A DNA stretch of 64,000 nt, from positions 6,192 to 70,191 of the IMG/VR virus record IMGVR_UViG_3300036893_000044; one strand, given 5' to 3'. The notes under the pieces were generated by a model. It did not search any database. It was given only the letters and a program-made list of their open reading frames with translations, and was not told where the DNA came from. The position numbers and the translations under genes are program-made. This stretch comes from a virus. Below, in pieces: positions 13,877 to 60,078 of this stretch; positions within the stretch are counted from its first letter, which is position 1, and each line of letters begins with the position of its first letter.

Positions 13877-15676
13877 ATGGCCGATTCGACCGAGAGACCG
13901 GAAGCTGCGCTGGAGCGGGAAGTACTCGCCTGGTCCGACTCCGTTTACGACGAAGCGGAGCGGGAACTTGCCGACTCCCGCGAAATTCGGCTGACATCCC
14001 GGCTCATCGACTACATCTCCGGCCAGCAGTGGAACGCTAAATCCCGCTTCGGCCGCAGTCGGCCAACCGTGAACCGCCTCTTCCGGCAGTTCATGGAAAT
14101 GGCGGGTATCCTCACCGACATCGAGCCGGACTTTCAGGTTAAGTTCCACAACGAAGACGAGCAATTCACCGCTCTCCAGACCCTGCTCAACGAGATGATT
14201 ACCATGTGGGCGCAGGTGACGGACTTCGAAGCGGAGCTCACCCAGTCCGTCATGTGGGCGCTGCTCCACACGGGATTCGCCAAAATCCAATGGAACGGCG
14301 CGATGAACAACGGGATGGGGGATAACGAGTTCATGCCCCTTGGACCGCTGAATGTGATGAGTATCGGCGCGGGGAAGAAGCTGCAGGACGACGAATGCGT
14401 CATTGGCCGCTGGCCGGTAACGATCGAAACCCTCAAGCGGACGTTTGGCGAGCTGGCAAACGATGTGCAAGCCGACCTCGAAACCAATGAGCCGACCGGC
14501 GAAGTATCGCGGCCCGGCAAGATGTCGCAGGCGTCATGGGTCCGGCTGAATCCGCAGTTGAAGAAGATGCTCGGCAAACGGCAGTTGGATGGCAAGCGCA
14601 GCCGCTATCCGAAGGCGATGCTCAAGCAATTCTGGTTCAAGGACGCTTCGATCAATGAGGGTTCTGTCACGAAAAGAGTCGGCGACGAGCGGTACAACTG
14701 GTCGTATCTCGTCGAACCCGGAATGCCGTGGTACCCGCGCGGTCGGTTCCTGATTGTCGCCGGCGGCAAGGTTCTCCAGGACCAATGCAATCCCTACTGG
14801 CACGGCATGTTTCCCTTCGCCAAGCTCCGGCTGATTCGGGTGCCATGGTCGAGCCAGGGAGTTTCTCCGCTCGAACCCATAGCCCAAATGTCCGACATCG
14901 TAAACCGGATCAACGGCGGCCTGATGGACATGATTCGAGCCGTGATCGAGCCGCGCATCGTGGCGCCAAAGGCGGCATTCGCACAGTCTGTCTGGGATTC
15001 GATGGATCCCGGCGCACCCGGTTCTAAGATGATGTACAACAACAACACGCCGCGGGAACCGTCTTTCCCCAAACCAGCCGAGTTGCCGGCCTACGTTCTC
15101 CAGATGAAGCAGGATGTCGAGAAAGAGCAGGACATGACATCCGGCGCGTCGGCCATCAACCAGTCTTTGCAGAAAAAGCAGGTGCCGGGCGGAGACTCTC
15201 TGGAGATGATCCTGAATTCCCGGTCGATCCCCGTGCGCTTTATGGGCCGGGGCCTCTACTCGTTTCTCACCGATACCGGTACCCAGGTCGCTTCGAACAT
15301 CATGCAATTCTCGACCTCGAAGAGCCGGATCGCCAAATTCGGCACCAAGGGTCTGACGGACGCCGACTTCGAGCAACCCTTCGGCCAGTGGTTCTCGATG
15401 GCGAAGGGTATGGAGCCGGAGCAGTTCGTGCGCCAGGCGGTGTTCTCCATCCGCAAGGGCAGCTTGCTCGCCATCGAGAAGAACGAGGAAGTACAGATCG
15501 CGTTCTCGATGGTTAAAATGGGCGTGCTGTCGAGGAAGGCGCTGTATCGCAAGCTCGGGATTCCTACCGCTGAACAAGAGCGGATTGAGAAAGAGTTGCT
15601 GGAAGAGGCCAAAGAGAAGATTGCGCTGGCTCAGGCGGCTGGGGCCGGGCAGCATCCCGCACACGGTAAGAAGTGA
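13877..15676 (+). CDS. Portal protein
   Basis: 599 aa after terL; P22-like portal features (NPYWHG.FPF, Q..D.VN, DMTSG.S...Q). Confidence 0.85.
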   Translation: MADSTERPEAALEREVLAWSDSVYDEAERELADSREIRLTSRLIDYISGQQWNAKSRFGRSRPTVNRLFRQFMEMAGILTDIEPDFQVKFHNEDEQFTALQTLLNEMITMWAQVTDFEAELTQSVMWALLHTGFAKIQWNGAMNNGMGDNEFMPLGPLNVMSIGAGKKLQDDECVIGRWPVTIETLKRTFGELANDVQADLETNEPTGEVSRPGKMSQASWVRLNPQLKKMLGKRQLDGKRSRYPKAMLKQFWFKDASINEGSVTKRVGDERYNWSYLVEPGMPWYPRGRFLIVAGGKVLQDQCNPYWHGMFPFAKLRLIRVPWSSQGVSPLEPIAQMSDIVNRINGGLMDMIRAVIEPRIVAPKAAFAQSVWDSMDPGAPGSKMMYNNNTPREPSFPKPAELPAYVLQMKQDVEKEQDMTSGASAINQSLQKKQVPGGDSLEMILNSRSIPVRFMGRGLYSFLTDTGTQVASNIMQFSTSKSRIAKFGTKGLTDADFEQPFGQWFSMAKGMEPEQFVRQAVFSIRKGSLLAIEKNEEVQIAFSMVKMGVLSRKALYRKLGIPTAEQERIEKELLEEAKEKIALAQAAGAGQHPAHGKK

Positions 15677-23459: not shown

Positions 23460-23531
23460 TAGAATAGGGGTGTCGGGTGTCTCACCACCCGGCTCTCACC
23501 TCATCGTTCGGAGAAACGACTATGACACCCC
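23460..23531 (+). promoter_or_regulatory. -10 box plus three-way-junction leader sequestering HNH start (copy 1)
   Basis: TAGAAT; GGGGTGTC/GACACCCC; CGGGTG/CACCCG; TCGTT/AACGA. Confidence 0.75.
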
Positions 23532-24205
23532 ACGAAGACATCATACCCTACGGTTACTGCCATTGCGCCTGTGGGCAGAAGACCCTTATTGCGATTCGCG
23601 GCTGGAAGGACGTGAAAGCCGGAGAGCCGAGGAGGTATATCCACGGCCATTCGCACCGGATAAGGTCGATAATTGAAGATGCAAAACCATTTAAACTTGC
23701 AGACGAATATTGCCGACTCATTCCTCTTTCTCGAGGTTTATGGTGTATCGTCAGCGCCCATCGCTACGAGTATCTTATGCAATGGAAATGGTACGCATGG
23801 TTTTGGGAAAAGACCGGGAAATTCTACGCCGTGAGGAGTGGCCCGAGGATTAATGGAAGCCCAACTAGGATACTCATGCACCGCGCCATTCTTGGCTTGA
23901 TAGGTGGGGATAGAAGGCGTGGCGATCATATTGTTTCCGAAGACACACTAAATAATGCCGATAAAAACCTGCGCACAGGAACTGCTTCACAGAACAATCA
24001 AAACAGCAAAATAAGATCCGACAACACTACCGGATTCAAGGGCGTGTACTTTTATAAAGACGGTCGCAAAAAGCCGTGGATGGCACACATAACTGTAGAT
24101 AGAAAGCGGATCATTCTCGGTTATTTTGAAACCAAAGAAGAGGCGTACGAGGCTTATTGTGATGCCGCCAAAAAATACTTTGGCGAGTTTGCTAGGCTCA
24201 AGTAA
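23522..24205 (+). CDS. HNH-AP2 homing endonuclease 1
   Basis: GYCHCACG, MHRAI, DH..TLNN..NLR..QN..N, NTTGFKGV..LGYF...EEAY.AY..AA..YFGEFA. Confidence 0.9.
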   Translation: MTPHEDIIPYGYCHCACGQKTLIAIRGWKDVKAGEPRRYIHGHSHRIRSIIEDAKPFKLADEYCRLIPLSRGLWCIVSAHRYEYLMQWKWYAWFWEKTGKFYAVRSGPRINGSPTRILMHRAILGLIGGDRRRGDHIVSEDTLNNADKNLRTGTASQNNQNSKIRSDNTTGFKGVYFYKDGRKKPWMAHITVDRKRIILGYFETKEEAYEAYCDAAKKYFGEFARLK

Positions 24206-25324: not shown

Positions 25325-26383
25325 TTGCTAATGGAAGTCGCATTCCACTTGGCACAACCAGCCGTCTACGACACCCTCGTCAACCCCATCACCGCTGGCG
25401 CAGGCGTCACCGCCACAATTCAGTCCACCACCTATGTCTACCCCGGCGCTCAACTCGTCATCGAGAAGCCGGGGGTTTCCTCGCAGGAAGTCGTAACGAT
25501 TCTGACGGTCCCCTCGGCCACCACCTTCACCGCCAATTTTGCCAACAATCATTTGGCAGTGGTCCCCGCCTGGGGGCCGACATTCCCCACCCAGCAAGGC
25601 ACGGACCCGATCTTCACCCAGTCCGAGATGCTGCAGTACCTGTCGCGCGCGCAAAACGAGTTTTTGACGGCCGTACCCTGCTTCTACCAGCGGTTCTTCC
25701 AGAACGTGAGCATGGGGCAGATTTATCAGGCAACGCCTCCAACAGCCATCCTCATCGATCGCATTGCGGCCTCCGCCATCGACATCGGCATCACGTCCAT
25801 GGTGCGCAGCGGCAATATCGTCACGCTTACCGCGGTATCGCCCACAAACCTCGTCCAATACAACACGTTGTCAGTGGTCGGCGCGACCGATTCATCCTTC
25901 AATGGCGTGTTTGCCGTGATCAGCGCGCCGTCCGCGAACGTCATCACCTACCGGCAGATTGCGGCGGATGGATCGACAACCGGCGGCAATATTCAGTCTA
26001 TGTTAAGACTGTACGAGGTCACGCAGGAGGAGCTCGTCCAGCAGAATCGGGCATGGCAGTCGAGCTATGTTGGACCCTTGCAAAGTTGGTTTGAGGATCG
26101 GGCTGGGCTTTATCAATGGGGAGTTGGCGGGCTACCGAGTTCGACGTTCCCGGTGGAGTTGCTAGTAGCTTGTCGAGATAGCGATAGCCTCACGCTTCTA
26201 GATAGCTTCCTCGTCCCAGACGTGGTGGTCCATGCTCTGAAGTATAAGGTTCTTCAATGGTGCTGGGACAAGGACGGCATAGCCCAACAGCCACAGATGG
26301 CGCAGTTTTGTGGGAAGAGATACGATCAAATTGTCATGGCTGCTCAGAGATACATCCAAGCGATGAAGATGAATGTTCGATAG
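25325..26383 (+). CDS. Virion adaptor-like protein with beta-repeat inserts
   Basis: FT.SE..QYL..AQNEF adaptor motif, FCCH-like insert; true start may be upstream. Confidence 0.65.
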   Translation: MLMEVAFHLAQPAVYDTLVNPITAGAGVTATIQSTTYVYPGAQLVIEKPGVSSQEVVTILTVPSATTFTANFANNHLAVVPAWGPTFPTQQGTDPIFTQSEMLQYLSRAQNEFLTAVPCFYQRFFQNVSMGQIYQATPPTAILIDRIAASAIDIGITSMVRSGNIVTLTAVSPTNLVQYNTLSVVGATDSSFNGVFAVISAPSANVITYRQIAADGSTTGGNIQSMLRLYEVTQEELVQQNRAWQSSYVGPLQSWFEDRAGLYQWGVGGLPSSTFPVELLVACRDSDSLTLLDSFLVPDVVVHALKYKVLQWCWDKDGIAQQPQMAQFCGKRYDQIVMAAQRYIQAMKMNVR

Positions 26384-27068
26384 GCACGAAGCTACCATAG
26401 AGTTCAATTTCTTTCGCTTTACGCACAGCCACGGCTTTATCGAAGTCTTTGTAATTACCCAAGTGATAGCGGGTTCCGCCTTTGGCTATTACGACATGCC
26501 ACTTCTCTGACTCTTTCATCCAAACCACGCCGGGGTAGCCGCTCGTATTGTTCGACTGCGTGTTGCGATTGAAGGTATTTTCTGAGCGAGTAGACAGTCT
26601 CAGATTAGCAATTCTGTTGTCGAGGCCGTTGCGGTTTTTATGATCGACAAACATCCCCGGAGGAGGGTGGAGAATAAGGTTATGCAGACGGAGGGGAATC
26701 CTCTGACCGCCCACAATGTCAGTTCTGGTCGCGTAAAAAGTCTTATTTTTAGGGGAGTAATGAGCGCACCAAAACGCAGCATTTATACGGTTATATTCAC
26801 TTGTATCGACTAGAGAGAACAGTCCTTGCGTGAGAGCAATTAAGCGTACCGACAGATCCACTGGATGTTCGGTTGTGGATCGTTTTTTGACCGCTCCGTG
26901 GCCCATACTGAAGGCCTTTGGTATGCCTCTTTTCCAGCCAAAATAAGTGTTGGTTTTGAGGGCGACAGTAGTGGTACGACTGCACCCGCAGTGGCATGTT
27001 CCAAGAGGAATTTGGCAGGCAGGATCGCCGCAAATGCACAGTGCTACACTCAATTCGTGGGGTGTCAT
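26334..27068 (-). CDS. HNH-AP2 homing endonuclease 2
   Basis: CICGDPAC.IP.G.CHCGC, LHNLI, VDHKNRNGLDNR..NLR, NTSGYPGV, AP2 tail. Confidence 0.9.
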   Translation of the reverse strand: MTPHELSVALCICGDPACQIPLGTCHCGCSRTTTVALKTNTYFGWKRGIPKAFSMGHGAVKKRSTTEHPVDLSVRLIALTQGLFSLVDTSEYNRINAAFWCAHYSPKNKTFYATRTDIVGGQRIPLRLHNLILHPPPGMFVDHKNRNGLDNRIANLRLSTRSENTFNRNTQSNNTSGYPGVVWMKESEKWHVVIAKGGTRYHLGNYKDFDKAVAVRKAKEIELYGSFVPIEHSSSSLGCISEQP

Positions 27069-27131
27069 AGTCGGATTCGCCTCCGATGAAGGTTTGCACC
27101 GGGGTTCCCGCCCCGACACCCCTTTATTGTA
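27059..27131 (-). promoter_or_regulatory. -10 box plus three-way-junction leader (copy 2)
   Basis: TACAAT; GGGGTGTC/GACACCCC; CGGGG/CCCCG; TCGGA/TCCGA. Confidence 0.75.
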
Positions 27132-27166
27132 AACCATATAGACGACTCGTGGCATATACTATTCGC

Positions 27167-32271: not shown

Positions 32272-32991
32272 CTATACAACGCAAGCGAATTCGCCGAAGT
32301 ATTTGCGAGCCGCAGCACAATATGCAGCGTAGGCTAATTCCGCCGTGGCGAACAATCCGAGGTACAGATATTTACCATCCACCCTAATTCTCGCAGTCCA
32401 TTTTCTTGATCCCTTAGACCATGAAACGCCCTTATATCCACTGGTATTATTCTTCTGCTTACGGCGATTCTGTTGCTGCTGGGTGCGATTAGCAAGACGC
32501 AAATTACTGTCACGATTATCCAGTGTTCTCCATGGTTTCTTGTGGTCCCCTTTACGTGGATCGCCAGCTTTTAATCCAAGGATTTGGCGATGCATGGAAA
32601 TTGTTCCGCGCATCCCATCCTCTCTTGGATTCAGATTACGTACTGCATAAAACCCCTTTACGCTCTCACACCAAACAGCGCACCACTTCCACTGCATTAA
32701 GTAGGTATAGCGATGAGCACTGACAATAGCCCACTGGCCATTCATTAAAGGGATGAATCGCGCTCCTCTGATGAGCGTCGGACGCTCGCTTTCGGATGGC
32801 CTGATGCCCGATTTGTGGCCACATAGAAACTTATATGGCTCACCTGCCCAAAACCCATTTGTTCTATCTGTGCAACGTGAAATGTTTGTCTTTTTCCCGC
32901 ACCGGCAATGGCAGTAGCCATACGGAATATCGCAGGCGGGATCGCCACAGATGCAACCGTTTAGTGTTACAGTGATTTTGCGAGGGGTCAT
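32272..32991 (-). CDS. HNH-AP2 homing endonuclease 3
   Basis: CICGDPACDIPYGYCHCRCG, MHRQI, DH..TLDNR.SNLR, NTSGYKGV, AP2 tail YFGEFA. Confidence 0.9.
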   Translation of the reverse strand: MTPRKITVTLNGCICGDPACDIPYGYCHCRCGKKTNISRCTDRTNGFWAGEPYKFLCGHKSGIRPSESERPTLIRGARFIPLMNGQWAIVSAHRYTYLMQWKWCAVWCESVKGFYAVRNLNPREDGMRGTISMHRQILGLKAGDPRKGDHKKPWRTLDNRDSNLRLANRTQQQQNRRKQKNNTSGYKGVSWSKGSRKWTARIRVDGKYLYLGLFATAELAYAAYCAAARKYFGEFACVV

Positions 32992-33053
32992 GGTCGTTCC
33001 TCCAGAACGATTAGGCTTGCCAGGCGCTTCCAACGCCCGACCCCTCTAGTATA
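32982..33053 (-). promoter_or_regulatory. -10 box plus three-way-junction leader (copy 3)
   Basis: TATACT; GAGGGGTC/GACCCCTC; CGGGCG/CGCCTG; TCGTTC/GAACGA. Confidence 0.75.
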
Positions 33054-33413: not shown

Positions 33414-33643
33414 TGGAATCGCTGATCCTCAAACCACGCACCGTTGGCATCTCGCACCTTGCCCGTCTCCAGTTGGAATTCCCTAAATACGCAGATGCAC
33501 CTTTGGAATTCTGGAGAAGTCTTCATCAGGAGGCGGTCAAGGCGCATCGCACCATCGACGAACAACTCATGCTGGCGACCGGCGGCGATCTGGTTGCCAT
33601 GAAGGAAAGGAAATTGAAATGCTCATCATCCAAGCCGCAGTAG
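33413..33643 (+). CDS. Hypothetical protein
   Basis: Coupled ORF. Confidence 0.5.
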   Translation: MESLILKPRTVGISHLARLQLEFPKYADAPLEFWRSLHQEAVKAHRTIDEQLMLATGGDLVAMKERKLKCSSSKPQ

Positions 33644-34059
33644 CCCTTCCGTTTCTCCTCTGGATCATCTTCCGCCTCGGTCTGCCCTCCGGTGCCTACG
33701 GAATGGACCCGTGCGGCAAGGGGACTTTCTTCCCTCACCTGATTCTGTACTCCGTCTTCGGCTACATCCAGGTTCTGCTCGGCATCTTCGGCGCGACCTG
33801 GGCCTATGACTTCTCGCCGAATCTCTGGCCTGCGGCGATGTTCCTGCTTGCGGCGATCAATGCGCTGCTGTTCTGCGGAGTGCTGGCGTTCTTCTACGAG
33901 AGTTTTATGACGGATAGCTATCCGGGTGGATTATCCGTTAATCTCAAAATCTCCAACTACACCGTCGGCAAATGCTCGCTGGTGCTGGCCTTGGGCTTCT
34001 CGTCGATCGTTCTGCTGATTGGCGGGGCGGCTTGGACGGCGATGGGGATTGCAAGATGA
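33619..34059 (+). CDS. Four-TM membrane protein
   Basis: Four hydrophobic segments; AAGGAAAGG RBS. Confidence 0.65.
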   Translation: MLIIQAAVALPFLLWIIFRLGLPSGAYGMDPCGKGTFFPHLILYSVFGYIQVLLGIFGATWAYDFSPNLWPAAMFLLAAINALLFCGVLAFFYESFMTDSYPGGLSVNLKISNYTVGKCSLVLALGFSSIVLLIGGAAWTAMGIAR

Positions 34060-34262
34060 GCAGACCGCACAACATTCGCGCTCCGCTTAATCTCCGCGAT
34101 CATCCGCGCTGTTATCTATGCGGTGGTCCTTGGAAGTTAGAGGACGACTACAAAGCGACTCCGAGAGCAACCTTCAAAGTGGTCAGTTGCCAGCGATGCG
34201 AATTTACAACCGCTGCTGTATATGATGAAGTAGTTTGGGATGCGAGGACGTGGCCGCGATGA
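34056..34262 (+). CDS. Zn-ribbon protein
   Basis: CYLCGG..SCQRCEF; ATGA coupling. Confidence 0.5.
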   Translation: MSRPHNIRAPLNLRDHPRCYLCGGPWKLEDDYKATPRATFKVVSCQRCEFTTAAVYDEVVWDARTWPR

Positions 34263-34603
34263 CGATAGAGTTACAGGCCATCGACGAAGTTATGAGTTTG
34301 AATGGGAAGCCATACAAGATTCGCTGGCCTCGTGGTGTCTTTCGTTTCAAGCGTGGCGAGAAGGTCTGGGTGCGTGATCGTTGCCATGGCAAGGCTCCGC
34401 TGAGCAATGTTCGCGGCGGCTTTACAATCGTCGAGGCGCGAGTCCGCGAACGGCATTATCACCCCGGTAGGACTCCCGCATATCCAAATGGTGAAGGGTA
34501 TGCTCTTGACGGCGAACTTTGGTGGGACTGCTATCCCGGCTGCCGAGTGTTCAAGACGAGAGAACAGGCTCTGGCGGCCAGAATGTCGAAGGTGGGAAAA
34601 TGA
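34259..34603 (+). CDS. Hypothetical protein
   Basis: FK.GEKVW..VFKTREQAL; coupled. Confidence 0.55.
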   Translation: MTIELQAIDEVMSLNGKPYKIRWPRGVFRFKRGEKVWVRDRCHGKAPLSNVRGGFTIVEARVRERHYHPGRTPAYPNGEGYALDGELWWDCYPGCRVFKTREQALAARMSKVGK

Positions 34604-35088
34604 CGACGATCACCGACATGCGCACCTCCATCGACTCCATCAAAGCCGAACTCGGCAAAGGTGAGGTTGTCACTCGTGGCCGCCAGACTGGCAAGACGAC
34701 GGCGCTGCTAGAGTTCGTGCGCGGGAATGATCCCGGCAATATGATTATCGTCACATGCCATGAGAACGCGAGGCAGTTTTTAGAGCGCCGCTATCGCGAA
34801 ATGTATCCCGGCGACTACCGTCCAACATTCGCCTCCCTTCATAGAGTGAATTCTCAAGATGTTCGAGGTACTCGTCGTCGCTGGGCTACTGATGAGGTTT
34901 GGCCGCGCTCGGTGGTGAATCGGGTTCGCGATTATGAATTCGCGGAGTTTGTTGGTGGCGTCGGAACTCCGATGTGCATGGAGGATTTCAGCGGAGTTTA
35001 CTTGACTGGCGAGGATCATGAGAGGCCCGAGTCTCCTAAGCCGGTGTTCATGCAGGTGAGCGACAAGCTACGAAAGAAGAAGCCATGA
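34600..35088 (+). CDS. Miniature terminase-type ATPase domain protein
   Basis: RGRQTGKTT Walker A, VRG...WATDEV Walker B, GTP coupling-motif equivalent; 162 aa. Confidence 0.7.
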   Translation: MTTITDMRTSIDSIKAELGKGEVVTRGRQTGKTTALLEFVRGNDPGNMIIVTCHENARQFLERRYREMYPGDYRPTFASLHRVNSQDVRGTRRRWATDEVWPRSVVNRVRDYEFAEFVGGVGTPMCMEDFSGVYLTGEDHERPESPKPVFMQVSDKLRKKKP

Positions 35089-35315
35089 GCAGTCCCTACT
35101 GGCACGGTCTTCCGCCATTCGTCGAGTTCCACGTCGAGCCTGCGCCGTGGCTAATGGATTCGATTCGCTTTAGTCTCGAATATCAACTAGCTCATCCGCG
35201 CCCGATGATGCCCTACCAAGATCCGAAGGCACAATACGCATGGTGGGATGGAAGTTGTCTTTGCACGGCCCTGGTCAAGGAAGGTCCGAAGGCGATGGTG
35301 GTGTATGGCAAATAG
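35085..35315 (+). CDS. Small protein resembling a portal fragment
   Basis: PYWHGLPPF...PW vs portal PYWHGMFPF...PW; ATGA-coupled to mini-ATPase. Confidence 0.6.
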   Translation: MSSPYWHGLPPFVEFHVEPAPWLMDSIRFSLEYQLAHPRPMMPYQDPKAQYAWWDGSCLCTALVKEGPKAMVVYGK

Positions 35316-35619
35316 TTGGCTGAAGACGGACTGCCTTGCGCTGAAGATACAGCACCCGAATTATCTGGAAGAGGACCACCTGATGCTTACAGGATTGCGC
35401 TCAGACTACCGCATGTATTATGCGATTGTCGCGATCCCATCAAACCTCGAAGCGCGCGAAGAGGCATATAAGGCGCTTAGGGCTAAGTTTGCCACCTACA
35501 TTGATGCTCCAGTGGAATCGGTCGAAGTTACCATCAAAGACTATGATTTTCTCGTAGAGGATACGCTCAAGACCCGCAGTGGAATTCGGCTGGATAAGTT
35601 CCCGTGGAGCGGCAAGTGA
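35305..35619 (+). CDS. Hypothetical protein
   Basis: Overlapping ORF in operon. Confidence 0.55.
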   Translation: MANSWLKTDCLALKIQHPNYLEEDHLMLTGLRSDYRMYYAIVAIPSNLEAREEAYKALRAKFATYIDAPVESVEVTIKDYDFLVEDTLKTRSGIRLDKFPWSGK

Positions 35620-36395
35620 CCGAAGAAATCGACGTACTCGCCGCGCTCCAAGAAGACGCCTACAAATGGGGCGACCTCCAGGTTCTGCGCTACGTGAAGA
35701 CCGAATTCCCCGATGATTTCCTCGCGCATCTCTATCATCGTTGCCGGGAGTCCAAGCGCCGGTCTGGAGATGGCATTCTGACGCAATTGTTCGGCGGCAA
35801 CCCAGCCTCGGACTTCAATTCCATCGTCACTTATCTCGCGCAGCGGCCGGTTCTGCTGATCCTCGGAAAATGGGTAGACGAGAAGTTTGTCGAGCTCGGC
35901 TTCGCATTCTCGACTGTTTCGATGGGCGGGCCGAATACGGAGCATTCTTTGATCGTCGGGTACGGGTTTTTCCGCGAAGCCTGGTCAACAGACGACCAAG
36001 CAATTCTGACCATGTTGGGGCTGGCGTATTTCTTCAAGGAGTTCGACCTGCGAGCGATCATCGGAAACAGATACCCCGACAACATCCTCACCGCAAAGTT
36101 TATGGCCCGGTTTGGCTTCAACGACTGCGGCCAGATCCCCTGCTTCCAGTTGCGCGGGACTAAACTGGTTCCGATGGTGGTCTCGGCGCTGTTGAGGGCG
36201 GATTTTGAGGAAGTGGTCAGTGAGTTCCTGGTGAATGAGTGGCGGAAGGCGCAGGTGCCGGCAGCGTCAGAAGATCAAACTGGTGGCTACACTTGGGATT
36301 CCGAATCAGGCAAGGTCGAGAAGTTGACCATCACGGAAGTTGAGCCTGAGCTGGCGAAGGAAGAGCAGCCGTATTTGCCGTTGAATTGGATGTGA
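35616..36395 (+). CDS. GNAT-like acetyltransferase
   Basis: VGYGFFREAW..F..FDLRAIIG...N..T.KFM.RFGF; position before ejection genes as in podoviruses. Confidence 0.65.
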   Translation: MTEEIDVLAALQEDAYKWGDLQVLRYVKTEFPDDFLAHLYHRCRESKRRSGDGILTQLFGGNPASDFNSIVTYLAQRPVLLILGKWVDEKFVELGFAFSTVSMGGPNTEHSLIVGYGFFREAWSTDDQAILTMLGLAYFFKEFDLRAIIGNRYPDNILTAKFMARFGFNDCGQIPCFQLRGTKLVPMVVSALLRADFEEVVSEFLVNEWRKAQVPAASEDQTGGYTWDSESGKVEKLTITEVEPELAKEEQPYLPLNWM

Positions 36396-36397
36396 GT

Positions 36398-36664
36398 ATG
36401 ACCGAACCCATCCAATCCGAGCGTAGCGTAGCAATAGAGAACATGCTGCGGGATATGTGTGGAGTTCCCCGTAAAGGCCGCGAGCCGGATTACCTCAATG
36501 GCCGCTGGTGCATCAAGTGCCACAATTCGCTGCCGGAGGACTGGGGAGTCAAGCCCTGCGATATCTGCGGAGCGGCGACTGGTTTCCAGGGAAGCCTAGA
36601 CGGGCTGCTTGCCGACACGCCCTGTGAGAGCACCATAATCTACAAAGGCGTCCCCCGCGCCTGA
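36398..36664 (+). CDS. Zn-finger hypothetical protein
   Basis: CIKC..CDICG. Confidence 0.5.
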   Translation: MTEPIQSERSVAIENMLRDMCGVPRKGREPDYLNGRWCIKCHNSLPEDWGVKPCDICGAATGFQGSLDGLLADTPCESTIIYKGVPRA

Positions 36665-46990: not shown

Positions 46991-47968
46991 ATGGCAGATA
47001 ATGCAATACAGGTTGTAGCTCCCTCCACTGCTTTAGCCAAACCAGAGACATTCGCACCTCGCACATTGCAGGAGGCGCTCCAGTTTGCGGACTTGCTCAT
47101 CGAGTCCAAAATGCTCCCGAAGTCATACCTCGACAAGCCCCCGGCTGCGATTGTGGTCGCCATCCAGTTTGGCATGGAACTCGGAATGCAGCCCATGCAG
47201 AGTCTCCAAAATATTGCCAACATCAATGGCCAACCTGGAGTCTGGGGGGATGCTGCTCTCGCACTCGTTCTCAACTCGGGCCTCTGCGAGTATTACGAGG
47301 AAGATGACTTTGAGACCATCAAGAAGAATCAGAAAGCTGTCTTTGTCATCAAGCGGCGCGGCTTCCCGAAAGCCAAGACAACCACTTTCAGTTACGAGGA
47401 TGCAAAGACTGCTGGCATCTTCACCAATGCTGTCTGGAAGACATATCCGTATCGCATGTGCCAAATGCGCGCTCGCAGTTTCGGCTTACGCGGGTCATTT
47501 CCTGATGTTCTCAAGGGCATGGAACTCGCTGAGGCGTTGCAGGACTATCCCGGCACCACCATCGAAGCCGAACCACAGCGCTCCACTCCTGCAGCCGCCG
47601 CCGAGCAGAAACCGGCCGCCGAGGAAGCCATCGGACAGAGTGGCGGCAGCGACTGGTATAAAAAGTACAAGTCCAACGGGTACACGCCGGAAGAAGCGAA
47701 GAAGTGGCTTGCCGACAATCTCCAGATTGGCCCGCCGCATAACGACAAGAACTCGAAGGACATTCCGGTTTCGAAGAAAGATGCTGCCTTCGCATGGGCC
47801 AACACTCCGTCGCCAATCAAGACCGCTGTCACTCAAGCCTTCGATATACTCGGCTTCACTCCTGACGAGCGTGTCGCATTCTTCGCTCTGCACAAGGACT
47901 TCAAGACCGTCCACGAAGCCTTGCTGGCGGAAGCGCAGAAGCGCGATGCGGCCGAGCGCGGCGAGTAG
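46991..47968 (+). CDS. recT: RecT/Redbeta-superfamily single-strand annealing protein
   Basis: G.ELG..PMQSLQNIA.ING.P..WGDA, W..YP.RM...RA..F.LR..FPDVL.G. Confidence 0.85.
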   Translation: MADNAIQVVAPSTALAKPETFAPRTLQEALQFADLLIESKMLPKSYLDKPPAAIVVAIQFGMELGMQPMQSLQNIANINGQPGVWGDAALALVLNSGLCEYYEEDDFETIKKNQKAVFVIKRRGFPKAKTTTFSYEDAKTAGIFTNAVWKTYPYRMCQMRARSFGLRGSFPDVLKGMELAEALQDYPGTTIEAEPQRSTPAAAAEQKPAAEEAIGQSGGSDWYKKYKSNGYTPEEAKKWLADNLQIGPPHNDKNSKDIPVSKKDAAFAWANTPSPIKTAVTQAFDILGFTPDERVAFFALHKDFKTVHEALLAEAQKRDAAERGE

Positions 47969-50122: not shown

Positions 50123-50775
50123 GCACGACCATCATCCACGGAGGCACCTTTCGCACCGAGCCGCACGAATACCGCTCGGATGCCGGAGTTTGGACACCTT
50201 CATTGACGCAAACACTCCACCTCGCAGGCCTGTCCAACTTCGACGGAGCAGACCCCGACGACCTCGCCAACGCAGCCAGGCGCGGCGACCTGCTCCACGG
50301 CGCGGTCGAGGTCTACAACAAAGATAGAGAAGGGCTGGACCCCTGCTGGATCACCGAGGAGATTCAAGGCTACTTCGAAGGCTATTTGAAGTTCGAGCGC
50401 GACACTGATTTTAAGCCGGATCCAGCTTGGACCGAATTGCCGATGATCGTGACTATCCAGGGCATGCCTTTAGGACTCAAACCGGATTGCTTCGGCAGGT
50501 TAGGCAAATGGGATGCGGTGGTCGAATTGAAGGCGGCGATCTGCGTACAGCCGTCGTGGAGTGTTCAGACCGCAATGCAGGAAATGGGTATCTTCAAGTC
50601 GAGTCATGTTGGCCGGGTCCAGAGGTTCGCATTGCAACTCTTTAAGGATGGCCGGTACAAACTGCATCCGCATTTGAATCATCAGGAGGATGAGGCTATC
50701 GGAATCGCGGCGCTGAGGACGGTGCATTATCGGCTTAGCAAAGGACAACGTTTGTGGGAGAAAGTGAACGCATGA
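50119..50775 (+). CDS. PD-(D/E)XK Cas4-like exonuclease
   Basis: H.Y..PS.TQ..RG..LH..E..PD..VELK..Q. Confidence 0.75.
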   Translation: MSTTIIHGGTFRTEPHEYRSDAGVWTPSLTQTLHLAGLSNFDGADPDDLANAARRGDLLHGAVEVYNKDREGLDPCWITEEIQGYFEGYLKFERDTDFKPDPAWTELPMIVTIQGMPLGLKPDCFGRLGKWDAVVELKAAICVQPSWSVQTAMQEMGIFKSSHVGRVQRFALQLFKDGRYKLHPHLNHQEDEAIGIAALRTVHYRLSKGQRLWEKVNA

Positions 50776-51791
50776 GCAGAGACGAGAATCTTGTAGTAAG
50801 AATTGAATTTGGTTCGCACCTCTACGGCACGAGCACGCCGACGAGTGACCATGACTATAAGTCGATCTACATTCCGAATGCTTCCGATATTCTGCTCCAG
50901 CGGGTCAAGGGATCGACTGGCCACAAGGTCAAGCGATTTGAGCGCGAGAAGAATGCGCCAGACGATACAGACGATGAGGCTTATTCTCTCCAGCGGTACC
51001 TCACTCTTCTGGCGGAAGGGCAGACCGTCACCATTGACATGCTATTCGCTCCCAAACCGCTGATTTCTACGCCGCTCTGGGATGAGATTCGCTTGAACAA
51101 GGACCGCTTTCTGACGAAGAAAAGTGCGGCCTTCGTCGGCTACTGCCGGACCCAGGCGAACAAATATGGCATCAAGGGTAGCCGGGTAGCGGCGGTAAAG
51201 AAGGCCGCAGACTTCTTTACCGATTGGGCTGGCAAGTTGGCTCAAGGAACGCGATTGCGAGAAGTGGCTGATTTGTTGCCAGCGTTGTGCGATGAGCACA
51301 CGAAATTGGTTAGTTTGCCGCGCAAGGAGCAAATTAACGCCAATTCTGGCGGGTGGGAGTTTAAGGAGCGATTTGACGAATTCTTTGAGTGTTGTAACCG
51401 TAAGGTGGAGTTCGGTAATACATTGAAAGAGGCAGCAAAAATCTTCTCACACATCTATGAAGAATACGGCCATCGGGCTAAATTAGCGCAGGCTAATGAG
51501 GGCATCGACTGGAAGGCGCTGAGTCATGCTGTGCGTGTGGCGAACGAGGCTGTTGAATTGCTGACCACCGCCAACGTCACTTTCCCGCTTCCAAATGCCG
51601 AGCACATCCTTGCTATCAAGAAAGGGCTGCTTTCTTATGATGAAGTGGCCGAGGAGATTGAAGGCTTGCTATTGGAGGTCGAAAAAGCATCAGCGGTATC
51701 GACATTGCGAGATGACGCTGACCAGGAGTTCATCGACTATCTGATTCAGCGCGTTCATCGCGAGTCTGTTTTGAGCGAGGTCACCGCATGA
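50772..51791 (+). CDS. RlaP-like DNA-polymerase-beta-superfamily nucleotidyltransferase
   Basis: FGSHLYGTSTPTSDHDYK, GY...QA.KYG.KGSR, DWKALSHAVR, IK.G. Confidence 0.85.
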   Translation: MSRDENLVVRIEFGSHLYGTSTPTSDHDYKSIYIPNASDILLQRVKGSTGHKVKRFEREKNAPDDTDDEAYSLQRYLTLLAEGQTVTIDMLFAPKPLISTPLWDEIRLNKDRFLTKKSAAFVGYCRTQANKYGIKGSRVAAVKKAADFFTDWAGKLAQGTRLREVADLLPALCDEHTKLVSLPRKEQINANSGGWEFKERFDEFFECCNRKVEFGNTLKEAAKIFSHIYEEYGHRAKLAQANEGIDWKALSHAVRVANEAVELLTTANVTFPLPNAEHILAIKKGLLSYDEVAEEIEGLLLEVEKASAVSTLRDDADQEFIDYLIQRVHRESVLSEVTA

Positions 51792-51994
51792 CCCTCTTCA
51801 ACATCTTCGTCTCCGAACTCAAGCGTAGCCCGACCCTGATCATCTCCCGTCAGACGATGAACGGCGTGTACCCGGATCGGCCTGCGACAGAGGCAGCGAC
51901 CGCATTAGCTGAGGCTACGGATACGGAAGTCTTCGTGGACGACAATGGCAATTTTCAATTCAACCCAGTGGAGAAAGGAACGCATCATGGATAA
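51788..51994 (+). CDS. Hypothetical protein
   Basis: ATGA coupling. Confidence 0.5.
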   Translation: MTLFNIFVSELKRSPTLIISRQTMNGVYPDRPATEAATALAEATDTEVFVDDNGNFQFNPVEKGTHHG

Positions 51995-53318
51995 CACACA
52001 GCAACTGCTCGCCTGCCTGAAGCCGGTCGAGTCTTCGATGTTCAGCAAGGCTGGCTACAGCGAGGATTATTGGACGCTGGTTCTGGCTTTCAAGTCCAGC
52101 AAAGAGATCAAAGCCTACAAGAACTGCGCGCCGGAGGTGGCGGACGAGGCATTGTCTGACAAGTCTCTTGGCTCTTGGTGGAACAAGCACATCAAAGGCA
52201 ACCCCGCATGGGAAGCCGAGATCATTGGCGTTGACGAGACTGCGCCGGCCGAGAAGCCGAAACCACAGCCCCAGGTTCAAGGCGGAATCACGGATACGGA
52301 TATTCGGAGTGTGGAACCCGGATGGAATGGGACGACGATCGACCCGATTCCATTGAAGCAGATGAGCGTCTCCGAGGTCGCCAACTGGCCGCAAGGCGAA
52401 GAGGCTGAATTGGCCCTCGATGCGGAGTTGAATCAAGACGACCGGCAATCCGCCATGACCACGCAGACCCACGGCGAACTCCTCGGAGCGTGGACGGCGC
52501 CGGAATCAGCAGCAGAGGCTTTAGACCTCATGTCCGAGCGCTCCGCCGAAATCAAATTGATCATCCAGCAATCAAAGTCAACCGGCGAGCAGGCGCTGAC
52601 CGTGCGCGTGACGGATGCCGATTCACATAAGGCGGCGAGTGAGACGCTGGCGACCTTGGTCAAGAAGAAGGACACGACGACGGCGTTGCTGGAGCCGTTC
52701 CGGGTCGTCCTTTTCTCCGCCTACGAAGAGGCGCGCGGCTACAAGGCCGCTGCTCTCACTCCGCTGGAGGCTGGCGAAAAACACATAAAACTGCAACTGA
52801 CAACGTACACCGCCGCGCAAGAGCGCATCCGGCAGCAGCAAATTCGCGAAGACAACGAGCGGCGTGAGCGCGAGGCCCGGGAATTACAGGAAGCGGAGGC
52901 GGCCAGGATCAAACTCGCCGATGTGCAGGACGCGATCGACGAAGGCGACGAGCAGCGAGCCCAAACCTTGTTCGATGCTCCGGCAATCCAGGTTCCCCGT
53001 CCGTATATCGCGCCGACGTATATCGCCCCCGCCGCGCCGAAAGTCGAAGGCCAGAGCACCTCGACCACATGGAAGGTGGATCGCAGTCTGGTCGAGGACG
53101 ACGAAACCGGACAGGCCTATGTGGCGAGCATCACGAAGTTGCTGGCGGCCGTCAAGGTTGGCACCTATCCAATTGAGCAGGCGGCGCAGTTGCTTCAGTG
53201 GGATTTCTCGGCTGCGGATAAACTTGCGGGAGCGCTCATGGCTGCATTTTCGGTTCCGGGCTTGCAGGCTGGACCGCAATCGACGCTGAGGGTTAGCCGG
53301 GGGAGGAAGAAGAAGTAG
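51987..53318 (+). CDS. KTSC domain fused to coiled-coil phage protein
   Basis: PVESS....GY....L...F....Y......S.G.W....IKG; C-terminal PKVEG.S...WK..VPGL. Confidence 0.75.
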   Translation: MDNTQQLLACLKPVESSMFSKAGYSEDYWTLVLAFKSSKEIKAYKNCAPEVADEALSDKSLGSWWNKHIKGNPAWEAEIIGVDETAPAEKPKPQPQVQGGITDTDIRSVEPGWNGTTIDPIPLKQMSVSEVANWPQGEEAELALDAELNQDDRQSAMTTQTHGELLGAWTAPESAAEALDLMSERSAEIKLIIQQSKSTGEQALTVRVTDADSHKAASETLATLVKKKDTTTALLEPFRVVLFSAYEEARGYKAAALTPLEAGEKHIKLQLTTYTAAQERIRQQQIREDNERREREARELQEAEAARIKLADVQDAIDEGDEQRAQTLFDAPAIQVPRPYIAPTYIAPAAPKVEGQSTSTTWKVDRSLVEDDETGQAYVASITKLLAAVKVGTYPIEQAAQLLQWDFSAADKLAGALMAAFSVPGLQAGPQSTLRVSRGRKKK

Positions 53319-55240: not shown

Positions 55241-55444
55241 CCATGACTCGTCCGCGCAGGCATTTTCATCCACACGATGAGATTCCGTTTCCGGTATATC
55301 TAACGGGAGCGTTCTGCTTGTTTCTATGCGCTGTCGCGGTGATTATGATTGTCGCGGCCACGCTGACGATTGTCGTTAAATTTGCCGGGCATCTCGCGGG
55401 ATGGTGGTAGTGAGTATCGACAGGATCAGATAGGAAAGGAACGC

Positions 55445-56467
55445 ATGAAAACCGTCCAAATTACCAAGCCGGTGTCGATGAAGCTATTGGGGGATACACC
55501 AAACCTGTCCGTCATGTTACCTGGGCATTGTAATGCAAAATGCGAGTTCTGTTTCTGGAACCGCGACCAGCAGGCGAACAAGTTTCCGATGATGGATTTC
55601 GCGGACCGGCTGGCGCGAATCCTCGACTCGCTTCCGTGGCAGTTCTCGCAGGTGAGTGTGACAGGTGGCGAGCCGACCATTTCCCCTGTCCTCGACGAGG
55701 TGATGGCTGTTCTTAGGGAGCGAAGAGAGCGATTTCCGAAGGTGGTGCTCACCACTAATGCGGTCAGACTTATGAAAAACCGGGATGTCATTTACGGCGT
55801 CGTTGACCACATCAACATCAGTCGGCATCACCACAGCGATTTGGAAAACGCTGCGATCTTCAAGACAAGAGGTGTTCCGTGTGAAAGCGAAATTGCCAAG
55901 ATACTAAAGGTCGATTACGGGGCCGACATCTGCTTTAATTGCGTAGTCCCGCCGACGGTGACTGAGAAATTTTGTCAGAGTTACATCGAGTGGGCGCGTT
56001 ACTACCAACAGATCGCGGCGGTAAACTTCCGTATCTACCATAACTCTATGGAGGAATGCAGGGCGCAGAAGGAATTCGAGAAAGTGTATGGCTCGACAGA
56101 TGTGACCACCTGCCCGGTTTGCAGAGTTATGCGAATGAACGTCGAAGGGATGCAGGTGAACTGGAAGTACAGCGTTCAGGAGCCAACGCAACACTGGAAC
56201 GGGATCTACGAACTCGTAGTGCAACCCGATGGCCGGGTAACAGCCGATTGGGCTGGAGTACAGGAAATTGATCCAAGAAATATTGAGGGTGGACCTATGC
56301 CGAAATCTAATCGGGAACTAGCTGAAGAGTTGATCGAACTGGCGAAGAAGTTACTGGAAAAGGACGAACCCAAAGCAAAGCATGGCAAGCGGGTGATAAA
56401 AACTGTCTACGTCCAATCTTCAGGTGGCGGATGCTCTCATGGCGGAGCTGGCGGAGGCTGCCGGTAA
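55445..56467 (+). CDS. Radical SAM protein
   Basis: CNAKCEFC, TGGEPT, LTTN, NISRHH, CPVC; Gly/Cys C-terminal tail. Confidence 0.9.
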   Translation: MKTVQITKPVSMKLLGDTPNLSVMLPGHCNAKCEFCFWNRDQQANKFPMMDFADRLARILDSLPWQFSQVSVTGGEPTISPVLDEVMAVLRERRERFPKVVLTTNAVRLMKNRDVIYGVVDHINISRHHHSDLENAAIFKTRGVPCESEIAKILKVDYGADICFNCVVPPTVTEKFCQSYIEWARYYQQIAAVNFRIYHNSMEECRAQKEFEKVYGSTDVTTCPVCRVMRMNVEGMQVNWKYSVQEPTQHWNGIYELVVQPDGRVTADWAGVQEIDPRNIEGGPMPKSNRELAEELIELAKKLLEKDEPKAKHGKRVIKTVYVQSSGGGCSHGGAGGGCR

Positions 56468-60017: not shown

Positions 60018-60057
60018 TTGCAAGCGTGATCCTTTGTGTTGTAATGTTGCAAGCGTG
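60006..60057 (+). promoter_or_regulatory. Integrase upstream region with two operator copies
   Basis: GTTGCAAGCGTG at 60017 and 60046. Confidence 0.65.
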
Positions 60058-60078
60058 ACAGAACGGAAAGGAACGGAA

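Follow-up and report, generated by a model that had tools for sequence, protein, structure and literature searches.

Two overlapping small genes in the window, the 64,000-nucleotide stretch of viral DNA analyzed here, encode an ATPase (ORF162) and a miniprotein (ORF76) that together are not a miniature terminase-portal motor. The best explanation overall, and one that we consider somewhat probable, is that they are unrelated accessory genes now lying side by side, namely a recombination-helper ATPase and a miniprotein bearing a segment of the portal. This corrects a sequence-only reading of the locus, which had taken the two for a coupled mini-terminase ATPase and mini-portal: we find no miniature packaging motor, and no evidence here for a decoy pair directed at Avs. 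The genes belong to a fast-recombining island, a chain of overlapping small genes in a temperate phage (integrase at 60034-61227) whose hosts are probably Acidobacteria, and are arranged as follows.

34235-34603, + strand: upstream ORF of 122 aa with no family; its stop overlaps the ORF162 start codon (ATGA), and in other strains it is absent or replaced
34600-35088, + strand: ORF162, 162 aa, a predicted stand-alone single-lobe P-loop NTPase (translation, homologs, AF2 model, fold and profile searches)
35085-35315, + strand: ORF76, 76 aa, a putatively chimeric miniprotein that overlaps ORF162 by ATGA
35305-35619, + strand: downstream ORF, 104 aa from a conserved ATG, with no family, followed by an overlapping gene at 35604-36395

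ORF162 is, on its sequence and model, a predicted stand-alone ASCE P-loop NTPase with a single RecA-like lobe, belonging to a phage-specific family with a core of about 130 aa. The AF2 model (pLDDT 85) is a single alpha/beta domain in which residues 1-130 form the folded core, followed by a conserved tail (residues 131-162) that is predicted to be disordered; there is no C-terminal RNase-H-like nuclease domain, in line with what had been said of this ATPase before. The motifs RGRQTGKTT, WATDEV, and GTP, which had been read from the letters, are likewise present and conserved in the family, and the conserved parts of the protein lie at these positions.

34675-34701, + strand: Walker A RGRQTGKTT, ORF162 residues 26-34, conserved in the family
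34882-34905, + strand: Walker B WATDEVWP, residues 95-102, with D98 and E99 (family alignment)
34954-34971, + strand: GGVGTP, residues 119-124 (family alignment; strand E117-122 in the model)
34990-35085, + strand: C-terminal tail with YLTGEDHERPESPKPVFMQVSD and then a basic part, found in 7 of 30 homologs and predicted to be disordered

The segment VRGTRRRWATDEVW (residues 88-101) is also conserved in the family, and GGVGTP is placed where we take helicase motif III, or the terminase coupling motif, to be. Both the P-loop arginine of an RQxGK[ST]-type Walker A and the catalytic glutamate of Walker B are present (R28, Q29, G31, K32, T33, D98, E99). Across the 30 sequences of the ORF162 alignment the invariant residues are R28, G31, K32, D98, E99, G119, and G122, and in the 78-sequence family alignment the sole invariant residue is R28 of Walker A. 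We found 31 homologs of ORF162, and a tblastn search of 50,697 phage records with ORF162 and ORF76 gave no match. The family profile, run against 1.84e9 representative proteins, had 172 matches, the best 150 of which were all 58-361 aa long and nearly all shorter than 200 aa; a structure search of BFVD with the ORF162 model returned many phage proteins of 100-170 aa among its matches, and 13 of the 78 family members match phrog_2586. Phages commonly carry members of this mini-ATPase family, to which no function has so far been assigned.

The fold and profile comparisons suggest that ORF162 is no worse a fit to domain 1 of SF2/SF1 helicases than to the large terminase (TerL). Its best VIA-align matches were SecA, XPB, DEAD-box proteins, Hef, and UvsW domain 1 (Z 10.7-9.7), with helicase domain 1 spanning Z 10.7-9 and T4 gp17 at rank 43 (Z 8.9), and Foldseek against the PDB placed pestivirus NS3 and XPB on top and the P74-26 TerL at rank 18. 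Structure rows in the ESM Atlas were DEAD, ResIII, and UvrD, including viral clusters of 154-174 aa; Podovirus_Gp16 was the second named neighbor there, at 0.82, a value under the reliability bar of the tool. When the family profile was searched against PDB sequences, UvrB was best (E 0.003) and no TerL was among the best 60 of 63 matches at E<=10. ORF162 itself matched no terminase family in Pfam or PHROGs at E<=1, and terminase was absent from the 10 families listed when Pfam was run on the 78 family members. Among those members, 4 matched Pfam helicase families weakly (2 ResIII, 1 DEAD, 1 Viral_helicase1) and 2 reached TerL PHROGs (E 6e-4 and 9e-4). A RecA-like domain 1 with motifs I, II, and III is present in ORF162, and we found no second RecA-like domain (motifs IV-VI, arginine finger), the protein stopping after domain 1.

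The phage has a full terminase of its own.

10935-13073, + strand: resident large terminase, with the P-loop KPRQTGIS

BLASTP of ORF162 against it found nothing (best E 0.22), which bears out the earlier remark that ORF162 is no recent copy of TerL. With hhalign, the strand-P-loop-helix-strand unit of the ORF162 family fell on TerL residues 99-150 (prob 1%, E 0.049). An RQxGK[ST] P-loop with its arginine is typical of T4-type terminases, and a TerL-type origin for the ATPase is still conceivable. We nevertheless regard it as highly improbable that ORF162 is a packaging-related ATPase, working alongside the resident terminase or portal as an accessory or substitute motor subunit. Such a role would suit the resemblance of the RQTGKT P-loop to the PRQTGIS of the resident TerL, the hhalign placement just given (though only at that E value and probability), the T4 gp17 score, and the Podovirus_Gp16 neighbor, even though the last lies below the reliability bar. 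Against it are the missing terminase family match, the position of ORF162, which adjoins no packaging gene and lies 21 kb from the packaging genes, and the neighbors of its homologs, which are recT or integrase rather than terminase or portal genes. With UvrB the best PDB sequence match and helicase domain 1 scoring above T4 gp17, the identification of ORF162 as a terminase is not supported.

The gene neighborhoods of its homologs instead point toward recombination. A RecT-like annealase gene lies immediately 3' of the ORF162 homolog at 6 of the 12 loci with visible downstream sequence; three of these (L007, L008, L009) were scanned with profiles (phrog_561 at 1e-40 and 4e-39, Pfam RecT at 3e-23), and the other three (L006, L041, G011) looked near-identical to the scanned ones on visual inspection. 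At the loci examined, the homologs adjoin recT, integrase, or unrelated ORFs and never terminase or portal genes, and in L009 a MazG-like pyrophosphatase is fused to the ATPase. Because homologs stand directly upstream of RecT-type genes of two subfamilies, a role in recombination or replication is the most likely one for ORF162, a predicted helper linked to RecT by gene order. Lacking a second lobe, ORF162 probably hydrolyzes ATP as an oligomer, and it may assist phage recombination or replication, for example by remodeling or loading ssDNA-annealase complexes. The position of the mini-ATPase before two different RecT subfamilies gives rise to the hypothesis of an annealase partner. In this very phage, contrary to the pattern of a RecT partner, ORF162 does not adjoin recT.

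46991-47968, + strand: resident RecT-like annealase; no ATPase gene lies upstream of it in this phage, and relatives have one directly upstream

In a relative with the same island (G011), the ATPase adjoins recT at a distance of about 17 kb from the small ORF, and in the lineage of the window the ATPase gene may have moved away from recT.

Turning to ORF76, profile comparison shows what appears to be a chimera, in which only the portal signature is retained (residues 2-23) and is joined to a family-specific C-terminal module. Its parts and their portal counterpart are the following.

35088-35153, + strand: portal-signature head of ORF76, residues 2-23, SSPYWHGLPPFVEFHVEPAPWL (hhalign against the portal profile, shuffles, motif HMM)
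35220-35312, + strand: family-specific C-terminal module, DPKAQYAWWDGSCLCTALVKEGPKAMVVYGK, not portal-like and under protein-level selection
35262-35309, + strand: DNA stretch almost identical in relatives that includes the ATG of the next gene (35305) and forms the 3' junction at which the ORF76 cassette is swapped by recombination
13877-15676, + strand: resident portal gene, SU10/P22-type family
14789-14848, + strand: portal signature NPYWHGMFPFAKLRLIRVPW, portal residues 305-324, near-invariant in 116 portals

The best-conserved part of ORF76 is the C-terminal module, which is unrelated to portals, and synonymous changes within it (e.g., Ser AGT/TCC) show that this is a real coding gene. 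PYWHG is kept in 4 of 11 close homolog clusters and lost in 7. With about 22 portal-like residues in a protein of 76 aa whose remainder is non-portal, ORF76 has no full wing-stem-clip-crown, ring-forming protomer, and the notion of a mini-portal had to be given up. ORF76 and the neighboring small ORFs matched nothing in Pfam, PHROGs, NCBIfam, or PADLOC, and an ESM Atlas search with ORF76 gave no usable match. Its AF2 model, built from an 11-row alignment, is unreliable (pLDDT 56.7, pTM 0.26), and a complex predicted from 11 alignment rows of ORF76 and 59 of the portal scored 0.00, which counts neither for nor against binding. A permuted, portal-like second half of ORF76, as the sequence-only reading had suggested, was tried and rejected: family members without the PYWHG head (headless A7) are unmatched to the portal profile, reaching E 0.25 at a different portal region, and P0043 alone scored below 31 of 40 shuffles.

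The head itself matches the portal family signature D..NPYWH..PF...R..RVPW...G and keeps 8 of the 8 aromatic and proline positions that are invariant in portals; R318 and R321, likewise invariant, are absent. In the 116 portals these positions are conserved as P306 (116), Y307 (115), W308 (115), H309 (112), P313 (116), F314 (113), P323 (113), and W324 (116). Pairwise BLASTP aligned ORF76 residues 3-22 with portal residues 305-324 at E 6e-6, with the 9 identities that had been counted before. When all 101 window ORFs were compared with one another, this was the best non-paralogous match (29.6 bits) and was reached by 0 of 20 shuffled proteomes; the shuffled maximum was 29.3, so the pairwise evidence is borderline. 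Against a profile of 59 portals, hhalign gave ORF76 a probability of 91% and E 1.1e-6, with a score of 45.2 that 0 of 40 shuffles reached (maximum 21.7), and a portal motif HMM found the head at E 5e-5 among 6075 frames, all of which argues for the portal-derived signature proposed earlier. The identical 15-mer that had been pointed out does occur exactly twice in the window (14791-14805 and 35093-35107; 0 of 100 shuffles), and adds little to the portal match because, once PYWHG is shared, the codon usage of this genome would make the P, Y, and H codons agree with p about 0.08. The two DNAs are identical at 38 of the 60 nt of the motif, evenly across codon positions. Against the portal profile the mixed alignment (A2) reached only E 0.004, because rows without the motif dilute the head. 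A phmmer search of the PDB with the portal gave chance matches only, the relation to solved portals needing a profile.

Similar small ORFs occur in other phages, and we define a family of phage ORFs of 60-125 aa that match portal residues ~277-325, one another, or both at the profile level. The portal profile was matched by a 123-aa ORF of L045 (hhalign prob 94%, E 9e-8, portal 285-325) and a 68-aa ORF of L011 (prob 84%, E 8e-6, portal 277-309), and the pooled small-ORF profile matched it at E 3e-5. In shuffle controls, 0 of 40 reached the score of ORF76 or of the L045, L011, or L046 ORFs; the L032 ORF is a weak link (E 0.015, with 1 of 40 shuffles reaching its score). The core of the ORF76 family (A7) matched the L011 ORF (prob 91%, E 9e-7); against the L045 ORF it reached only E 0.058, and directly against the portal it gave nothing, so its portal ancestry is reached transitively, by way of L011. 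At least three further phage lineages (L044/L045, L046, L011/L038) have small ORFs that carry the portal motif, with SPYWHGxPPF kept across ORFs that are otherwise 26-32% identical, and the preceding portal hairpin is found in the L045 and L011 ORFs as well. A related-locus search with the L045 ORF alone returned the two known contigs and nothing more. From the profile matches, together with the preceding hairpin in the ORFs of other phages, it follows that the family of portal-segment-like miniproteins is real, and the comparisons show 60-125-aa phage proteins apparently derived from a captured piece of the portal (residues ~277-325, a beta-hairpin plus the signature). This piece sits just before the first stem helix. 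In some portals, hairpin and NPYWH..PF..PW together are also an intein target.

The likeness could still be a relic or a coincidence, ORF76 being an ordinary ORFan from illegitimate recombination whose aromatic and proline motif is kept merely since it happens to fold or has not eroded. We think this rather unlikely. The near-chance pairwise score, the limited DNA identity with a 15-mer mostly accounted for by codon usage, the tolerance of the ORF76 family for motif loss, and the unreliable AF2 model all agree with it, whereas the profile-level significance (E 1e-6, 0 of 40 shuffles), the retention of SPYWHGxPPF among such divergent small ORFs, and the portal hairpin kept in independent relatives speak against it. 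On the reading we prefer, that of a miniprotein bearing a portal segment, ORF76 might act as a peptide-level mimic of that segment, a suggestion we offer tentatively.

ORF76-type miniproteins may also act without the ATPase, as mimics of a putative wing-stem segment of the portal that either poison the portal ring assembly of rival phages (superinfection exclusion exerted by the prophage) or sequester a host factor recognizing this short, invariant epitope. We consider this unlikely. The copied residues coincide exactly with the aromatic and proline positions invariant in the portal, the motif recurs in those other lineages, the L045 and L011 ORFs are among small genes that we interpret, by inspection, as early genes, the ORF76 head is a swappable cassette, and the phage is temperate. 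It is difficult to square such mimicry with the loss of the invariant portal R318 and R321 from ORF76 and of PYWHG from 7 of 11 close clusters.

The island is a mosaic. In other runs from peat and permafrost, contigs break at 34720, 35088, 35262, and ~35305, and the N-terminal part of ORF76 is swapped between strains. A contig from another study (X4) spans 34588-35537 with 14 differences and has the same arrangement of ATPase and small ORF, which G004 and X3 share except for the head of the small ORF. The ORF76 head of the window is not covered in X3, X5, and X20, which is not evidence of its absence; short contigs of the locus in its G004-type form are present in X20, an RNA library, which is not proof of transcription. 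A promoter and terminator scan of 32-38 kb gave fewer sites than shuffles did, so no operon boundaries are defined. The ATGA overlap suggests that ORF162 and ORF76 are translationally coupled, and to this extent the coupled pair holds; as a conserved unit it does not, since an ORF76 relative follows the ATPase at only 2 of 12 ATPase loci and in 2 of 11 small-ORF records. Because an ATPase gene lies within 4 kb of a small-ORF family member in 4 of 11 records (the window, G004, L011, and G003), the two families may be loosely linked in function. In two respects that the sequence-only reading had itself named as telling against it, the findings go partly that way: the ATPase lies near helicases, and PYWHG is found in 4 of 11 close clusters.

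A more specific partnership would make ORF162 and ORF76 co-adapted decoys, look-alikes of the terminase ATPase and of the portal that soak up TerL- and portal-sensing Avs. In one report, Avs families are described as sensing portal, TerL, RecA-type ATPase domains, and SSAPs, and as recognizing whole folds via extended interfaces (PMC13581612). Measured against that report, the ~22 portal-like residues of ORF76, with no confident fold, are a poor match for whole-fold recognition (PMC13581612), helicase domain 1 fits ORF162 at least as well as TerL does, the pairing is not conserved, and no PADLOC or anti-defense family was matched, PADLOC holding models of defense rather than anti-defense. The gene overlap, the recurrence of the arrangement in X4 and, with the other head, in G004 and X3, the portal signature matched by the ORF76 head, an RQxGKT P-loop of the kind commonly attributed to TerL, and an island that recombines fast, as counter-defense loci often do, would all be in keeping with decoys. 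On balance, we find the decoy pair very unlikely.

A broader reading, which we hold to be quite unlikely, is that the miniproteins form an undescribed family of stand-alone copies of the most conserved, putative wing-stem segment of the portal, working as mimics. They would serve as decoys for host sensors that read the epitope, or would cap the portal rings of rivals in a dominant-negative manner; strains would trade the head as a cassette, and in this phage the mimic would be translationally coupled to a helicase- or terminase-like mini-ATPase that may power or regulate it. A keyword-level search of open-access main text returned nothing on small ATPases that partner RecT, on decoys of portal or terminase, or on ORFs that are free-standing portal fragments. 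If the miniproteins are true portal-segment mimics, they would represent a new type of phage accessory gene, arising by capture of that part of an essential structural protein which is under the tightest constraint, and would help to find out what recognizes the segment in assembly or in sensing by the host.

Compared with known systems, ORF162 has the same fold as domain 1 of SF2/SF1 helicases (XPB, UvrB, DEAD-box, T4 UvsW, SecA; Z 10.7-9.7 over 117-131 aligned residues) and shares their Walker A, Walker B, and a motif-III-like GT past the next strand; the match of its family profile to UvrB (E 0.003) covers motifs I-Ia. It differs from these helicases in lacking a second RecA lobe and accessory domains, in having a core of just ~130 aa, and in the invariant Arg-Gln of its family P-loop (RQxGKT). 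With the ATPase domains of TerL proteins (T4 gp17, P74-26) it shares the ASCE fold, a DE Walker B, and what is generally regarded as their RQxGK[ST]-type P-loop, whereas it has no nuclease domain, lid, or linker, lies outside the packaging module, and has no TerL-sized protein among the best 150 of 172 matches to its family profile. The uncharacterized PHROGs 2586, 1488, and 21294 resemble it in being small phage proteins with one P-loop domain, the match to phrog_2586 being limited to the P-loop (residues 27-61, E 5e-4), and BFVD phage proteins of 100-170 aa (phiRSL1, phage 133, EL, PhiPA3) match it at E 3e-5 to 5e-4; these relatives are unannotated and thus lend ORF162 no function. Portals of the SU10/P22 type (Pfam PF23899; solved N4-like 9lbz and Sf6-like 7sxk) are ~600 aa long, whereas ORF76, at 76 aa, has no stem, clip, or crown, is unrelated to them in the rest of its length, and is missing R318 and R321. 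What it has in common with these portals is the NPYWH..PF..PW signature reproduced by residues 2-23, and its relatives also reproduce the preceding YPxGxxhhhxxGxxV hairpin.

Both open frames of the pair, ORF162 (a small P-loop ATPase) and ORF76 (a 76-aa protein with a portal-like head), are real, every motif cited in an earlier sequence-only reading was found in them or in the resident genes, and the cited 15-mer occurs exactly twice. The ATGA overlap between the two frames, which had been read as coupling, also exists, but it is common to a whole chain of small genes: a 122-aa ORF upstream shares an ATGA overlap with ORF162, and the genes downstream (35305-35619, 35604-36395 and 36386-36664) each overlap the next, so coupling is not a property of ORF162 and ORF76 alone. 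A scan of 32-38 kb for promoters and terminators gave no signal above chance. The main genes compared are:

10935-13073, resident large terminase (TerL)
13877-15676, resident portal
34600-35088 (+), ORF162
35085-35315 (+), ORF76
46991-47968, resident RecT-like annealase

The terminase gene matches phrog_2 in a PHROGs search (E 1.6e-16), and the portal gene matches phrog_156 (E 1e-9) and, below cut-off, Pfam SU10_portal (E 1.9e-5). The window, which spans bases 6192-70191 of a 70,191-bp IMG/VR virus record, also encodes an integrase, a methylase and, in the replication region, a DnaB helicase with three genes beside it (50754-51791, 51945-53318, 55370-56467): those of an RlaP-like nucleotidyltransferase (E 1e-13), of a KTSC-domain protein and of a radical-SAM protein. 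The host is probably an acidobacterium, because an Acidobacteria MAG contains one ATPase homologue, Tunturiibacter phages carry distant relatives of the portal, and the nearest matches to the window come from peat, permafrost and lake metagenomes. Three paralogous HNH/AP2-type endonuclease genes (23477-24205, +; 26334-27155, -; 32272-33033, -) are dispersed over the structural region, one just upstream of the island around ORF162 and ORF76; they match each other at 162, 122 and 85 bits in BLASTP, and the third matches phrog_99 (E 2e-37) and Pfam AP2.

The portal-like head of ORF76 corresponds to the most conserved portal stretch, D302..N305-P-Y-W-H..P313-F..R318..R321-V-P-W324...G328. Across 116 portals, down to 35% identity in the region, P306, P313, W324 and G328 are found in all 116, Y307 and W308 in 115, F314 and P323 in 113, and H309 and R318 in 112. 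ORF76 keeps all eight aromatic and proline positions as well as G310, but both arginines (R318, R321) are replaced. The pairwise match is borderline (29.6 bits versus a maximum of 29.3 among 20 shuffled proteomes), whereas the match to the portal profile is clear (hhalign probability 91%, E 1.1e-6; score 45.2 versus a maximum of 21.7 in 40 shuffles). When 6075 frames were searched with a 48-column HMM of the portal segment, ORF76 scored E 5e-5 and the second-best window frame outside the portal E 0.33. A profile of 59 portals matches solved portals (9lbz, E 5e-5; 7sxk, E 1e-3) and places the motif immediately ahead of a long helix. In P22, residues 344-398 are described as the portal "stalk" to which terminase binds (PMC5290284). 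By rough analogy, the segment copied in ORF76 would belong to the wing rather than the clip, as its final element ahead of the first stem helix. Three of the 116 portal homologues (P0239, P0258, P0289; 977-982 aa) carry a ~381-aa insertion right after the NPYWH..PF..RVPW..GL signature, at a point equivalent to window ~14860; it starts with C-Y, ends in ..WCGN before Ser, and has the appearance of an intein whose central part is a homing endonuclease, placed at the most conserved site of the portal.

A degenerate YWHGxPPF pattern matched eight viral contigs: four in long frames of 398-641 aa, which we read as portal genes, three in small ORFs (L044, L045, L046) and one in a 69-aa frame. The portal-segment HMM also matches a 68-aa ORF in contig L011 and a relative in G003/L038. 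Portal residues 285-325, including the hairpin, align with the 123-aa ORF of L045 (probability 94%, E 9e-8), and residues 277-309 with the L011 ORF (84%, E 8e-6); none of 40 shuffles reaches either score. ORF76-family members without PYWHG do not match the portal profile directly and do match the L011 ORF (91%, E 9e-7), and the positional counterpart of ORF76 in G004 (113 aa) matches the L045 ORF (BLASTP E 2e-6) and, weakly, the portal (E 0.015; one of 40 shuffles reaches the score). A pooled small-ORF profile matches portal 283-326 (E 3e-5). By sequence comparison, the small ORFs are one family descended from a portal fragment, whose members retain different portal parts, the signature without the hairpin in ORF76. 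Relatives follow the portal's own order, and therefore the permutation once suggested for ORF76 is unnecessary.

Relatives of ORF76 form 11 clusters whose common part is a C-terminal module, DPKAxYAWWDGSCLxTALVKEGPKA; the SPYWHGLPPF head is present in only four (P0001, P0039, P0041, P0048). Compared with the DNA of four related viral contigs, the module shows synonymous changes (e.g., Ser AGT/TCC, Leu CTG/CTT, Lys AAG/AAA), and ORF76 is therefore a translated gene. Its last ~26 nt, which include the next gene's start, are near-identical in four of five sequences.

Contigs of other runs over 33600-36400 break or rejoin at 34061/34074 to 34588/34612, at 34720 (inside the ATPase gene, just past the P-loop helix), at 35088 (the ORF76 start), at 35262 (the start of CTALVKEGPKAMVVYG) and at 35304-35309. 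Contigs from three runs (X3, X5, X20) have the first ~120 nt of the ATPase gene in common and then a G004-type allele from 34720, which the alignments mark as a recombination point. The window-type ATPase end in X3 continues into a G004-type small ORF, and the small-ORF head behaves as a swappable cassette bounded by fixed junctions. A contig from another study (X4) spans 34588-35537 with 14 differences, so the window's gene arrangement exists elsewhere. At the upstream island edge lies a conserved ORF of ~146-158 aa (33619-34059, +; counterparts in L030, L032, L033) with no family match, hydrophobic in stretches and possibly a membrane protein; at the downstream edge lies a 263-aa gene (35604-36395) with a weak acyltransferase PHROG match (E 0.034). 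Gene content between these edges is different in every relative examined.

The gene downstream of the ATPase was seen in 12 loci (window, G004, L002/L005, L003, L004, L006-L009, L011, G003/L035, L041, G011/L054), L010 being left out because its sequence ends. Directly 3' lies a RecT-like gene in six of the 12 (L006, L007, L008, L009, L041, G011) and an ORF76-family member in two (window, G004). The L007 and L008 genes match phrog_561 (1e-40 and 4e-39), that of L009 matches Pfam RecT (3e-23) and is of a different subfamily, and those of L006, L041 and G011 were assigned by eye, their proteins reading nearly identical to scanned ones. The L009 ATPase homologue (2647-3405, +) carries a MazG-like pyrophosphatase (phrog_3301, 1e-25) as an N-terminal fusion and lies directly upstream of the Pfam RecT gene; an integrase lies near the homologue in L004. 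The relative G011 shares the island (membrane protein, small ORF, 263-aa-type gene), with the ATPase still preceding recT and the small ORF ~17 kb off; the window's recT has no ATPase gene in front. These contexts are most simply explained if the ATPase is a functional companion of the annealase and its gene changed place in the window/G004 lineage. A conserved 50-89-aa ORF (MRNP.GW.LG...W.P.WIQPYW.RCMG.) of no family lies near ATPase/RecT genes in three unrelated contigs:

L004, 647-820
L041, 1610-1762
L002, 6112-6381

Small-ORF family members are present in 11 records. The ATPase adjoins the small ORF in two (window, G004), lies within 4 kb in two (L011, G003) and elsewhere in one (G011); it was not found in G005 (A1 profile) or G007, G008, G009 and G010 (A4 profile), all incomplete records, and G006 was outside the search. 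These data are too few to establish the two as a functional pair, yet enough that a loose association between the families may exist.

With low confidence, decoy variants included, we propose that ORF76 may act as a peptide-level mimic of the portal wing-stem segment; otherwise it would be a chimeric miniprotein with a selected but portal-unrelated function. PMC13581612 reports sensing of portal, TerL, RecA-type ATPase domains and SSAPs by Avs families via extended interfaces, which would make a 22-residue Avs decoy unlikely. A keyword search of open-access literature returned no description of stand-alone portal-fragment genes, of terminase or portal decoys, or of a small ATPase partner of RecT; portal-segment-derived miniproteins are a small, apparently undescribed family.

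ORF162 has 31 close relatives, mostly 125-145 aa. Invariant in 30 aligned sequences are S10, I14, K15, L18, R28, G31, K32, A35, L36, E38, Y65, D98, E99, G119 and G122, while the 30-residue tail, predicted to be disordered, is common to seven; across a 78-sequence family alignment the P-loop arginine R28 is the sole invariant residue. Searching 1.84 billion representatives gave 172 matches at E<=1e-3, and the 150 listed measure 58-361 aa, none terminase-sized or two-lobe-helicase-sized. The AF2 model is a single alpha/beta domain (pLDDT 85), closest to domain 1 of SecA, XPB, DEAD-box, Hef and UvsW (Z 10.7-9.7), with the T4 gp17 ATPase at Z 8.9. Foldseek placed pestivirus NS3 and XPB at the top and P74-26 TerL at rank 18, ESM Atlas structure matches (DEAD/ResIII/UvrD) agree with the other fold searches, and many small phage proteins in BFVD share the shape; the ESM Atlas feature neighbours, ResIII (0.88) and Podovirus_Gp16 (0.82), are both under the tool's reliability bar. 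In Pfam, ORF162 itself matches only AAA_14, below cut-off, and in PHROGs only unknown-function families. Among the 78 members, 13 match phrog_2586 and two TerL PHROGs (E ~1e-3); in Pfam, seven match AAA_14, two ResIII, one DEAD and one Viral_helicase1.

With a single lobe, conserved arginines R26/R28 and no arginine-finger domain in cis, ORF162 may be an oligomeric NTPase that aids a RecT-type annealase or replication; a recombination role for this uncharacterised mini-ATPase is plausible. Its RQxGKT P-loop is terminase-like. Residues 99-110 of the resident TerL hold the P-loop KPRQTGIS, with no Lys preceding Ser, which we take to resemble the lambda-type "deviant" Walker A, with lysine at the motif start. 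An hhalign comparison of the family with this TerL aligned the P-loop region with its elements in the correct order, though only at probability 1%, E 0.049. No terminase appears among the 60 of 63 solved-structure matches listed for the family profile (E<=10), and UvrB ranks best (E 0.003). What the sequence-only reading noticed is real at sequence level and its interpretation half right; a decoy pair of mini-terminase and mini-portal is not supported, and the "terminase" label cannot be claimed. ORF162 is an ASCE NTPase like helicase domain 1 or the terminase N-lobe, and it groups essentially with helicase or other P-loop families, the outcome that the sequence-only reading had named as refuting it, with the caveat that the TerL ATPases are themselves structural cousins of the helicase lobes that it resembles.
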